A DNA stretch of 64,000 nucleotides from Octopus vulgaris (Eukaryota), in assembly GCA_951406725.2 (NCBI GenBank), contig OX597825.1, positions 72,478,001 through 72,542,000 on the forward strand, read 5' to 3'. Shown in pieces: positions 6,152 to 61,782 of this stretch (positions within the stretch are counted from its first letter, which is position 1; every line of letters begins with the position of its first letter). The notes under the pieces were generated by a model. It did not search any database. It worked only from the letters and a program-made list of their open reading frames with translations, and had not been told where the DNA came from. The position numbers were made by a program, and so were the translations under genes.

Positions 6152-6350
6152 TACGGAGAGTTTACGAAAAAAAAAGACGAAGACAGGGGGTGTACAAAAC
6201 AAACAGATGTATTAGTATAACGCTCAGGAATAGAAAAAGTATTTTACGTTTCGAGCCTACGCTCCTCTACAGAAAGGGACACAGAAAAAAACAAAAAGAG
6301 AAACAAGGAGAGAAAAAAATGTGTGTAGTGGCTAACGATCTATCATGGCG
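6152..6350 (-). mobile_element. Short Penelope-like non-autonomous element, copy 1 (second copy 40641-40777)
   Basis: Shares about 135 bp with 40641-40777 and contains a minimal hammerhead-like motif at 6241-6276. Confidence 0.65.
6241..6276 (-). ncRNA. Minimal type I hammerhead-like motif, atypical core CUGUAGA
   Basis: Minus strand: cttt CTGTAGA g GAGC gtag GCTC GAAA CGT A aaat. Stem II GAGC/GCTC, palindromic ACGT stem III, GUA cleavage triplet. Confidence 0.5.
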
Positions 6351-7697
6351 ACCACCTAAAATAAGGAATGGTGACGGGAGGAACGTCTTTCATTGTAGGT
6401 ATTTTCCACCAAGACTGAACTGACTTAGGCCTAACAGCAAGAGACTGGCAAAATAGTCTCTACTCACAAGCAGACCACAACAAAAAATCTTCAACTCTGC
6501 AATATGTCTTGAGTTTCATAACATTATAAACCTTGATATATCAATCAGACGAGACGAAATAAACTCACATTTTGAAACAGTTCACTTCTAAAACTGGGCT
6601 TAGTGCCTTAAATATATAAAGGTTACTCAACTTTCCCTTTTCATTTGTTAGAAGGTCCCCTGCTTCATTATTAATTATTTTATTTTTGTAAAACATGTTT
6701 CAAGCAAACTGGAACATTTTTCGTTCCGCTTTGTTTTGACAGGTATCTGCTGTCAGATGAATTTCTCATCGTATTTTTACTAACTTTTAATCAAATACGC
6801 TCTCTTATTCATCAATATCAATAAATATAATATTTTAATGAGAATATCTAAAGACTTAAAATCATGCATTTATTTTATTCTCATCCCCCAATTAAATAAA
6901 TTTAGATGAGTAATATGTGCAATAAATTTGTTTTACTTCATATACGAAGAATTAAAGATATTTATTCTTCTGAAAATAATTCTTCAGATCTTCCTACATA
7001 AAAAATATAAATTGAAAAATTGACCTTTATATATATATATTATATTATATTATATTATATTATATTATATATAATGATATATTACATTATATTATGTTAT
7101 ATCATGTTATAGTACACATATGTATATAAATGTATATATATATATATATATATATATATATATATATATATATATATATATATATATATATATATATATA
7201 TATATAATATAATATATATATATATGCAGGTGGTAGAGTAAGGAATGTTAATTTGTTTTGGAAAGATATATGTAAATTAAAAAACCATTATATAACAAGT
7301 AGAGAGAAATCCTTTTATGGCGCCTCCAAATAAAAAAAAAAAAAACATACGTGAAATAGAATTTATAATTGCACATTAGATACATTTTGGATAGCATAGA
7401 AACATTTAGAGATATGATATCGAAAATGCTAGCTTTCGTGTGTGTATGTATGTATGTATGTATGTATATATGTATATATGTATGTATGTACAGGCAGAAG
7501 CGTGGTTGTGCTGTCAAGAAGCTCGCTCTGTAATCAAGTGAGTTCGGCCTTATTTCCCACTGCGTGACACCTAATTGAAGTTTTTTTCTGCTAACCAACA
7601 CCTAGGCCGACCAAAGTTTTCAGAGTCAATTTAGCAGACGGAAACTATACAGAGGTCCGTCATGTCATATACATAAATGTATATAAATGTATATAAA

Positions 7698-7980
7698 GTG
7701 GCACTCGGTCAGTTACATCAATGTCGTATTCAGTAGATCCGATCAACGGGGCAGCCTGCTCGTGAAATTAACGTGCAAGTGGCTGAGCACTCCACAGACA
7801 CGCGTACACTCAACGTAGTTCTCGGGGAGATTCAGCGTGATACAGAGTGTGGTAAAGCTGGCCCTTTGAAATACAGGTATTACAATTTTTTGCCAGCTGA
7901 GTGGACTGGAGCAACATGAAAGGTGTTTTGCTCAAGGACACAACGCGTCACTGGGAATTGAACTCACAACCTTACGATTG
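7698..7980 (-). mobile_element. tRNA-derived SINE family C
   Basis: Reverse complement of 45712-46010 (GTGAGTTCAATTCCC B box; TTGTGTCCTTGAGCAA; GCTCCAGTCCACTCAGCTGGCAAAAA). Confidence 0.85.
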
Positions 7981-8083
7981 TATATACAGTAAATATGTGT
8001 GTGTACTGTAAACCTGCATATACAGTGCATGTGTATATATATATATATATATATATATATATATATATATATATATATATTTG

Positions 8084-8121
8084 TATTTGACAAGTTCTAA
8101 AGAGGAACGAAAACGCTAATA
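8084..8121 (+). ncRNA. Minimal type I hammerhead ribozyme, U3:A8 core variant
   Basis: tat TTGACAA GTTC taaagag GAAC GAAA acgc TA ata. Perfect 4-bp stem II with G10.1-C11.1, 1-bp stem III, short 3-bp stem I. AATAAA follows, and the element lies between (TA)n and (TACA)n. Confidence 0.5.
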
Positions 8122-59722: not shown

Positions 59723-60092
59723 ATATTATTATTATTATTATTATTATTATTATTATTATTATTATTATTATTATTATCTTTATCATTATTAGTATTAGTA
59801 TTATTATTATTATTATTATTATTATTATTATTGTTGTTATTATTATTATTATTATTACTATTATTATTATTATTATTGTTATTATTATTATTATTATTAT
59901 TATTATTATTATTATTATTGTTATTGTTATTATTATCATTATTATTATCATCATCATTATCTTTATTATTATTATTATTATTATTATCATTATTATTATT
60001 ATTATTATTATTATTATTATTATTATTATCATTATTATTATTATTATTATTATTATTATTATAATTGTTATTATTAGTTTTGTTGTTGTTGT
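59723..60092. repeat. (ATT)n microsatellite
   Basis: About 370 bp of triplet run. Confidence 0.97.
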
Positions 60093-60667
60093 TACGCCTT
60101 TCACAAAATGTCTTGCGATACAGCGACCCATGGTTTCCTGGTCGAAATATTAATTTATTTCCCCAGTTTATCAAACCGTTAAAGCGGCAAAACGTTTCAG
60201 TAGTGCTCTGCTACCTGTTGAAAATCATACAACACAGTGTGCACACACACACACACACACACACACACACACACACGCACACACACACACACACACACAC
60301 GCGCACACACACACACACACACACACACACACACACACACACACACACACACACACACACACACACACACACACACACACACACACATACACGCACACAA
60401 GAACACACACGCACGTATCTTGAGATACATAACCACCCGAAACAAAGCCGAAGCTCCGCCTTCTATTTCCTGGGTGAAATGGAAGTAAGGAAATCTCACA
60501 TCGTGACTCGTGGATCGGAGAGTCTGGTCTCGCAGATGGACATTCAAATCTATATTTAGTGACGTGAGAACGTTGAGCAGTTTACCTTCGTTTTGAGCTA
60601 ACACTAGGGTATGTGCACTCACGCTGCCTATTCTGGACACAGCCATGTTTGATGAGATGAACGAAGA

Positions 60668-61391
60668 ATACATACCTGCGTACATACATACATACATACA
60701 TACATACATACATACATACATACATACATACATACATACATACATGCATGCACGCATGCATGCATACATACATACATACATACATACATACATACATACA
60801 TACATACATACCTGCGTACATACATACATACATACATACATACATACATACTTACATACATACATACATGCACGCATGCATACATACATACATACATACA
60901 TACCTGCGTACATACATACATACATACATACATACATACATACATACATACATACATACATACATACATACATACATACATACATACGTACATACATACA
61001 TACATACATACATACATACATACATACAAACATACGTACATACATACAAATATACATACATACATACATACATACATACATACATACATACATACATACA
61101 TACATACATACATACATACATACATACATACATACATACATACATACATACATACATACATACATACATACATACAAACATACATACATACATACATACG
61201 TACATACGTACATACATACATACATACATACATACATACATACATACATACATACATACATACAAACATACATACATACATACAAACATACATACATACA
61301 TACATACATACATACATACATACATACATACATACATACATACATACATACATACATACATACATACATACATACATACATACATACATAC
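60668..61391. repeat. (TACA)n microsatellite of about 720 bp
   Basis: Tetranucleotide array with recurring variant blocks CCTGCG and TGCACGCATGCA. Confidence 0.97.
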
Positions 61392-61740
61392 CTGGTGCTT
61401 GTCTACTCCTCATGTAGAGTCTGACCACCTCTTGTACCTAGACCTTAGATCCTCCATGGCGTCTGATGTGGCTTTTTAAACCGGACAATGTATTGAAAAG
61501 ATACCCACATAGATTTCATATCCGATTTAGACGATCAAGAGGTGTAAGTTAAGCGTTAACCATAGTGTATCTTAAAATGTCTTTTGAGAAACCTTAATTT
61601 AATTTTAGCGATGTCTGCACACGCAAAGATATCTGTGTCAGAAACAAGGAAAATGCCACTTGTTTTTGAACACTATGCAAATATTCTTTTAAAAAAAACC
61701 TTTCCTTTTAATTTTTCTAAAATTTAATTGTTTTCCATAC

Positions 61741-61782
61741 TTACAGTTGAAAAAGTATCAATGGCTGAAACCGGTACTGAAA
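61741..61782 (+). ncRNA. Minimal type I hammerhead ribozyme, U3:A8 core variant
   Basis: TTaCAG TTGAAAA AGT atcaatg GCT GAA ACCGGT A CTGaAA. Stem I CAG/CTG, palindromic ACCGGT stem III, GUA cleavage after 61776. (TA)n lies about 50 nt downstream. Confidence 0.65.

Follow-up and report, generated by a model that had tools for sequence, protein, structure and literature searches.

Introduction

Minimal type I hammerhead ribozymes of metazoan Penelope-like elements (PLEs) lie in pseudo-long terminal repeats (pseudo-LTRs), in many heterogeneous families per genome and mostly as solo truncated copies (PMC4209133). Cervera and de la Pena (2014) attributed such heterogeneous solo motifs to truncated PLEs and reported weak dimer activity for them; in the Cercyon PLEs of Schistosoma mansoni, about 1,300 motifs carry a U3-A8 pair (PMC4209133). 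Here we analyse hammerhead-like motifs in 64,000 nucleotides of the Octopus vulgaris genome (GenBank assembly GCA_951406725.2, contig OX597825.1, positions 72,478,001 to 72,542,000 of the forward strand; G000:C12:72478001-72542000 in our numbering), a stretch called the window below. Our reading, which we consider probable from the sequence data, is that the motifs are predicted type I hammerheads located at the 3' ends of repeats that form seven families and show PLE insertion marks. From family to family, the pair between core positions 3 and 8 remains Watson-Crick, the likely reason being that the source elements have to cleave themselves, probably in dimers formed through a palindromic stem III.

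The octopus motifs resemble the described PLE hammerheads in their type I fold, their place in pseudo-LTRs, the number of heterogeneous families and the prevalence of solo truncated copies, and also in opposite-strand pairs, in some families an extra base between positions 9 and 10.1, a palindromic stem III and U3-A8 (PMC4209133). They differ in that several of the octopus folds have stems III of 3-6 bp, longer than the minimal form. A G3:C8 family and a clade with U at position 6 (A6U), both found here, are unmentioned in the sections of PMC4209133 at hand. Perreault et al. (2011) described natural U3-A8, a tolerated U10.1-U11.1 mismatch and a low-activity A6C variant in one phage sequence (PMC3088659). 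The first two recur in the octopus, whereas the position 6 variant is A6U here. Neither G3-C8 nor A6U is named in the section of that paper on core variants, its figures and supplements lying outside the comparison, and natural G3:C8 was not found in the portions of PMC8490949 and PMC9608096 consulted. In the literature searched, neither a natural high-copy G3:C8 family nor an A6U clade was found; this search was incomplete, and Lunse et al. (2017), Przybilski and Hammann (2007) and Nelson and Uhlenbeck (2008) may contain them.

Two further systems are relevant. Retrozymes are non-autonomous relatives of PLEs (PMC7229834; Li, Clavereau and Pollet 2026, bioRxiv 10.64898/2026.07.22.740005), and the metazoan non-LTR retrozymes, a few hundred bases long and non-coding, carry a type I hammerhead and are akin to PLE pseudo-LTRs. 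Neptune-clade PLEs (Craig et al. 2021, PMC8557442) combine a reverse transcriptase (RT), a CX2-5CxxC linker and, at the C terminus, an endonuclease of the GIY-YIG type. The Poseidon element PAc of the anole (Frangieh et al. 2024, PMC11167929) starts reverse transcription internally, at two sites.

Results

Hammerhead motifs of the window

The window is about 35% GC and dense in microsatellites, in a genome of 2.8 Gb and 227 contigs. It was scanned with a type I hammerhead descriptor in which positions 3, 7 and 8 were left free, at a cut-off score of 14 or more, with 40 local dinucleotide shuffles and the reversed sequence as controls. Six matches were obtained, against 0.28 in the shuffles and one in the reversed sequence. 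A preliminary description of the window had listed at least seven sequence-unrelated hammerheads, and one of the six matches (60120-60179) was a motif absent from it. Three of the listed motifs escaped the scan: those at 6.2 and 40.7 kb, as A6 was fixed in the descriptor, and the decayed copy at 20.8 kb. The motifs at 8.1 and 61.7 kb scored 10 and 13, both within the background range. With three motifs missed and two in the background range, single copies cannot settle the matter; all five are rescued by the family data given below. Rfam returned no hammerhead in the window at the gathering score (0 matches). Its weak matches were driven by microsatellites, and none was a hammerhead among the 16 over 50365-50900 or among the 150 listed of 456.

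All the cores of the preliminary description were nevertheless present, at or beside their reported places. An all-versus-all BLAST of 10 element bodies joined only the 18.4-kb with the 48.9-kb element and the 6.2-kb with the 40.7-kb element, the remaining matches being 12-19 nt long. Hence, the listed motifs belong to seven mutually unrelated families, named here by their position in the window.

Pair 3:8 in the families and in the genome

Genome searches for six of the families gave 409-1476 first-look candidates each. The counts per family refer to the best 30 loci of each, among which a few are the two arms of one insertion. Copies of the 18.4/48.9-kb family were taken instead from sampled loci (9 BLAST matches in the 1.2-Mb sample described below; 12 rows, representing 11 insertions).

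Each of the six families had a nearly uniform state at 3:8. The pair was G:C in 30/30 copies of the 20.8-kb family, U:A in 30/30 copies each of the 8.1-kb and 61.7-kb families, and C:G in 30/30 copies of the 40.7-kb family, all of which had U at position 6. The 50.8-kb and 50.4-kb families had C:G in 29/30 and 27/30 copies. When the family majorities were folded, all six formed a type I hammerhead with a Watson-Crick 3:8 pair and a perfectly palindromic stem III; the 18.4-kb copies fold too. The stems and the 3:8 complementarity that the preliminary description expected of family consensi are thus kept. The stem III palindrome was broken in the window copies at 8.1, 20.8 and 50.4 kb, and selection on the window copies themselves is not supported.

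A genome sample of 120 stretches of 10 kb, taken at round coordinates from contigs C1-C26 (1.2 Mb; cut-off score 12 or more), gave 46 matches compared with 5.5 in shuffled sequence (8 shuffles) and 4 in the reversed sequence. Similar hit density in shuffled DNA, named beforehand as one outcome that would overturn the idea, was not what was seen. The 3:8 pair was Watson-Crick in 39 of the 46 (25 C:G, 11 U:A, 3 G:C), with no A:U and no U.G. When the matches were filtered for a palindromic stem III, a property chosen as independent of the 3:8 state, all 25 remaining ones were Watson-Crick (16 C:G, 7 U:A, 2 G:C), while each shuffle gave 1.6 matches (10 shuffles). Since copies are not independent, we clustered the 195 filtered matches of all collected DNA, a set in which the searched families are over-represented. 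This gave 29 clusters, among which 27 were Watson-Crick (19 C:G, 7 U:A, 1 G:C), the other two being a tie of U.G with C:G and an A:G singleton. Among the clusters lacking C3, 8/10 were Watson-Crick (P ~0.002 by composition), with the reservation that the U:A clusters may share ancestry.

It had been proposed that positions 3 and 8 always remain pairable as C:G, U:A, G:C or U.G. The three Watson-Crick states bear this out, but U.G is not the state of any family. It occurred in 1/30 copies of the 50.4-kb family, and that sole copy is the one in the window; the wobble is thus the decay of a single copy in a C:G family.

Other core positions

The canonical CUGANGA core is found in 3/7 families; U3:A8 accounts for 2/7, G3:C8 for 1/7 and A6U for 1/7. 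The pair G10.1-C11.1 is present in 4/7 (8.1, 20.8, 40.7 and 50.4 kb), with A-U, U.U or C.C elsewhere, and an extra base follows A9 in 3/7.

When one core position of the descriptor was freed at a time (3 shuffles), a clear excess was seen for A6U (13 vs 3.0) and U4C (10 vs 0.7), and a small mixed excess for U4A (7 vs 0.3) and A6G (4 vs 0). No clear excess over the 3 shuffles appeared when G5, A9, G12, A13 or A14 was freed singly. Hence, the catalytic residues are kept, and only the 3:8 pair and positions 4, 6 and 7 vary. With positions 4 and 6 both free, the 1.2 Mb gave 68 matches against 14 per shuffle, and the enriched classes comprised 16 canonical, 11 A6U, 10 U4C, 7 U:A and 2 G:C motifs. 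A search limited to CUGANGA would miss 30 of these 46 enriched-class motifs and 4/7 window families, as the preliminary description had foreseen.

The CUGUAGA cores that it listed at 6.2 and 40.7 kb are indeed present, their actual state being an A6U core with an ordinary C3:G8 pair. In a 36-row tree, A6U is fixed in 20/20 rows of one clade, and N7 takes all four letters. The A6U family lies within a larger group that has a common short stem II and an ACGU stem III (window 6140-6345 and 40642-40776; loci L181-L300), and a sister clade contains CCGACGA (U4C) and canonical cores. In the 50.8-kb family (L151-L180), the distal stem II hairpin differs between subfamilies, with apparent compensation. 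By BLAST, the 1.2-Mb sample contained 22 matches to the A6U family, 9 to the 18.4-kb family and 7 to the G:C family, and none to the four other window families.

Insertion structure

On the 3' side the copies end sharply, about 55-150 nt past H17, and a second 3' end lies 55-100 nt further on in the 20.8-, 50.4-, 50.8- and 61.7-kb families. Their 5' ends are spread, and inverted arms are common. The sequence (TA)4 adjoins the 3' end in 130/180 copies of six families, compared with 5.2% at random places. The statement that most motifs sit in or next to (TA)n/(TACA)n therefore holds at the level of the families, but the 6.2-kb and 20.8-kb window copies are not TA-flanked. A bias to microsatellites, 5' truncation, inversion and a tail are likewise described for PLEs (PMC8557442), and the two 3' ends match the two internal starts of reverse transcription in PAc; the octopus tails measure 55-100 nt, as against the 30-40 bp described for PLEs (PMC8557442/PMC11167929).

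Three families show particular features close to the core. Among the 11 insertions of the 18.4-kb family examined (loci L056, L084, L089, L146, L169, L195, L242, L283 and L316, and the window pair), 9 are fold-back inversions, and in no case does the element continue beyond about 10 nt 5' of C3, which looks as though the template began at stem I. In the G:C family (L031-L060), the starts of about 10/30 copies fall together, to within a few bases, at a site some 25 nt before G3 that by sequence resembles a 3' splice site as well as an initiator. In the 61.7-kb family, a splice-acceptor-like run ends exactly at N3.

Coding links and autonomy

The two U:A families are linked to PLE open reading frames (ORFs). 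At two loci (L302, L303), the 8.1-kb hammerhead flanks a decayed RT and GIY-YIG ORF on both sides. A search with the GIY-YIG sequence revealed a young family with about 33 intact frames of 784 amino acids among the 150 places listed, with matches to RVT_1 and GIY-YIG and with near-identical endonuclease ends (L311-L340, e.g. G000:C10:13325347). In 27/30 of its loci a UUGAAAA core (U3:A8) follows the ORF by 600-850 nt. Positions 61637-61840 of the window are 79.5% like the 3' end of this family, and at another locus (L069) a GIY-YIG remnant lies 517 nt upstream of a 61.7-kb-family motif. A linker of the Neptune type (CX2-5CxxC) precedes GIY-YIG in the translations of L312, L302 and L351, its form in the young family being CxxxxCxxC; the domain order matches that of Neptune-clade PLEs (PMC8557442), a putative assignment that uses the linker and the domains. 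On these predicted translations, the 8.1-kb and 61.7-kb families belong to autonomous PLE lineages. The A6U family is likely ORF-linked as well, as judged from its upstream sequence: one of three loci searched (L351) has the end of a PLE ORF about 1.1 kb upstream (26% identity over 235 aa, E 3e-20).

The 50.4-kb and 50.8-kb families present another picture. In 10/30 and 16/30 copies, respectively, the 3' extensions repeat sequence from further upstream in the element with an offset of 460-500 nt, as in circularly permuted units, with a terminal redundancy of up to 121 nt. No full dimer or tandem multimer was present in 30 loci of each, and one unit of each contained no ATG-initiated ORF longer than 23 aa. 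By their predicted organization, these two families are non-autonomous and retrozyme-like. They fit the metazoan retrozymes in general build and differ from them in being longer (470-490 nt), dispersed and terminally redundant, with no tandem multimer in the loci examined (PMC7229834; bioRxiv 10.64898/2026.07.22.740005). The G:C family extends at least 1.5 kb upstream through microsatellite-rich DNA; as 8 long copies carry no sense ORF, it is probably non-autonomous.

The preliminary description took all the motifs to be non-autonomous elements served by PLEs. This stands for the 50.4-kb and 50.8-kb families and probably for G:C, but not for the two ORF-linked U:A families; in the A6U family, one copy is preceded by a PLE ORF. 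No PLE protein remnant was found in the window or within 10 kb on either side. In a second PLE clade (queried with L039), the one copy examined had no standard hammerhead within 1.5 kb. No RNA record was listed for positions 20650-20880, the sole stretch searched.

Elements of the window

The 6.2-kb copy of the A6U family (6140..6345, minus strand) has N3 at 6272, H17 at 6245, the core CUGUAGA with C3:G8 and the palindromic stem III ACGU. Its stem I is just 3 bp long, and it is 91% like the 40.7-kb copy. The latter (40642..40776, minus strand; N3 40763, H17 40736; core CUGUAGA) lies between (TA)n tracts and equals the family majority over the whole fold; it belongs to a young subfamily, 98-100% alike in 40/40 matches listed.

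The 8.1-kb element (8078..8205, plus strand; fold 8084-8121; N3 8087, H17 8118; core UUGACAA, U3:A8) is the 5'-truncated pseudo-LTR end of an old autonomous PLE. The 61.7-kb element (61630..61845, plus strand; fold 61744-61779; N3 61747, H17 61776; core UUGAAAA, U3:A8; stem III ACCGGU) is the 5'-truncated 3' end of a Neptune-type PLE subfamily. The G3:C8 copy at 20.8 kb (20654..20867, minus strand; N3 20841, H17 20805; core GUGAACA) has a long 3' tail and a 13-bp target-site duplication at its bounds; in addition to the broken stem III it has a change in stem II.

The 18.4-kb element (18413..18612, both strands) is a fold-back insertion between (TA)n tracts with one canonical CUGAUGA hammerhead per arm, N3/H17 being at 18474/18436 on the minus and 18482/18520 on the plus strand. 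The minus-strand fold (18427-18483) has a U10.1.U11.1 mismatch and, instead of a palindrome, a 4-bp stem III with an 8-nt loop. A second fold-back insertion of the same family (48875..49072; 96% like the first) has N3/H17 at 48934/48896 (minus) and 48943/48981 (plus).

The two retrozyme-like elements are partial copies that adjoin a common (TA)n tract. At 50.4 kb (50360..50615, plus strand), a copy of a unit of about 470-490 nt contains the fold 50405-50493 (N3 50411, H17 50487); the family core is CUGAAGA, with C3U in the window copy. At 50.8 kb (50664..51060, minus strand, 5' end approximate), a copy of a unit of about 490 nt contains the fold 50794-50852 (N3 50847, H17 50799), with a canonical CUGAAGA core, a C10.1.C11.1 mismatch and a palindromic stem III.

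The additional candidate found by the scan (60120..60179, minus strand; core UUGAUAA, U3:A8, score 16) has one weak partial relative in the collected DNA. Two further remnants of hammerhead families have lost the core: an inverted pair at 61850-62090 and a 3' stub at 53370-53490.

The window also contains a tandem array at 4393-4805 (34-bp unit, 12 copies, 77% matches). Two 240-bp stretches, 37380-37620 and 38000-38240, lie 620 bp apart and are identical, microsatellites included; either they arose by recent duplication in tandem or the assembly is at fault. Many copies of two highly abundant short interspersed repeats occur at 26840-28440, 54895-55024, 57806-57935 and elsewhere, with a 184-bp tandem at 27958-28388. 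These repeats yield occasional chance hammerhead-like folds.

Discussion

The insertion marks and ORF links argue that the motifs are PLE hammerhead folds, as the preliminary description had put it, and we suggest the following scheme. The PLE endonuclease would nick AT-rich DNA; reverse transcription would begin past the ribozyme, at a site that is fixed, and in most cases stop early, so that ribozyme-bearing stubs remain. In transcripts of the source elements, the palindromic stem III likely lets two ribozymes pair and then cut, and the products of dimer cutting would be unit-length or circular RNA. Only the few source copies that are transcribed would be under selection, and the stubs dispersed in the genome decay. 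In this view U3:A8 and G3:C8 are compensatory swaps that would keep the active-site pair, and A6U would be a slow but tolerated core. The G8C change is reported to lower the rate 100,000-fold and C3G to restore it partly (PMC8495972), so a family in which G3:C8 is fixed fits selection for the pair. The double change C3G/G8C also partly rescues a PLE hammerhead (PMC11167929), and U4C is reported to be tolerated (PMC9608096).

Several observations weigh against this scheme. The hammerhead is the minimum-energy structure of the monomer in just 1/8 window folds. Within the 8.1-kb family, core and stem III are kept in only 12/30 copies and G12 is changed in 8/30. The core is barely more conserved than the flanks (30/1980 vs 168/5910 changes); this comparison is not used as support, because it is weak and confounded by the ranking of copies on likeness to the query. 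If the U:A clusters share ancestry, the independent swaps may be few, and the G:C state comes from one family, in which 8 long copies showed no sense PLE ORF. The ORF link of the A6U family was seen in one copy, across low-complexity DNA and with no Pfam match, and in none of 66 other copies examined. Activity should suffer from changes at A6 (an A6C variant cleaves at less than 0.1 per min; PMC3088659), but few clades are as abundant as A6U. A PLE can insert in vitro without cleavage (PMC11167929), and 8/9 frog retrozyme dimers tested failed to cleave (bioRxiv 10.64898/2026.07.22.740005).

Some of these points suit a different explanation, which we regard as rather improbable but the most serious competitor: that the fold is maintained for some function besides fast cleavage, for instance as a putative signal for binding or packaging by the PLE protein, or for slow, protein-assisted cutting. 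The 3:8 pair would then be selected for shape, and A6U, U4C and G3:C8 would cost little. The fixation of A6U throughout one clade with N7 free agrees with this, as do the low in vitro activity of minimal PLE hammerheads (PMC4209133) and the anole PLE hammerhead, which cuts only with protein and whose mutants still insert in vitro (PMC11167929). Against it stands the lack of a clear excess over shuffles of single changes at G5, A9, G12, A13 and A14, so that the catalytic residues are kept and variation is confined to the 3:8 pair and positions 4, 6 and 7.

That all seven families are short non-autonomous elements (retrozymes) copied by PLEs in trans is very unlikely. The circularly permuted, non-coding units at 50.4 and 50.8 kb, the long G:C copies devoid of a sense PLE ORF and the window with its 10-kb surroundings free of PLE protein remnants would all agree with it; the 8.1-kb and 61.7-kb families are ORF-linked, however, and the A6U family likely so. 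As a general claim it is refuted, and its validity is restricted to 2-4 of the 7 families. That the folds arose by chance in DNA rich in AT and microsatellites is scarcely credible. The background-range scores of two listed motifs, the three missed by the strict scan and the empty Rfam result would agree with chance, but an 8- to 15-fold enrichment over shuffles, the strictly Watson-Crick 3:8 pair and the better folding of the family majorities, compared with the copies in the window, refute it.

PLE hammerheads, their diversity and U3:A8 are known already, and heterogeneous solo motifs with U3-A8 covariation were described in 2014 (PMC4209133); as the basic phenomenon is published, the gain is incremental. 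The young octopus family has a natural U3:A8 core, whereas G3:C8 in PAc is an engineered rescue (PMC11167929).

Tentatively, and with somewhat less than even confidence, we extrapolate from the sampled sequence that the genome may hold about 100,000 PLE hammerhead motifs, with three of the four Watson-Crick 3:8 pairs sampled (C:G, U:A and G:C, not A:U) and with A6U and U4C fixed in lineages that have been successful; as high-copy natural examples, the G3:C8 family and the A6U clade might be the first. About two thirds of the motifs that look intact in this genome escape Rfam and descriptors limited to CUGANGA (30/46 for CUGANGA; none detected by Rfam in the window), so the number of animal ribozymes is likely underestimated. 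If the extrapolation is true, the motif set would be a natural mutational scan, which could show whether selection is for cutting or for a protein-assisted fold. The hammerhead occurs in nearly all PLEs, shows little activity in vitro and could be dispensed with in one insertion assay (PMC8557442, PMC4209133, PMC11167929). The young intact U3:A8 PLE and the abundant G3:C8 family and A6U clade are the most worthwhile subjects for bench work, and would provide matched natural test cases for the role of the hammerhead in PLEs.

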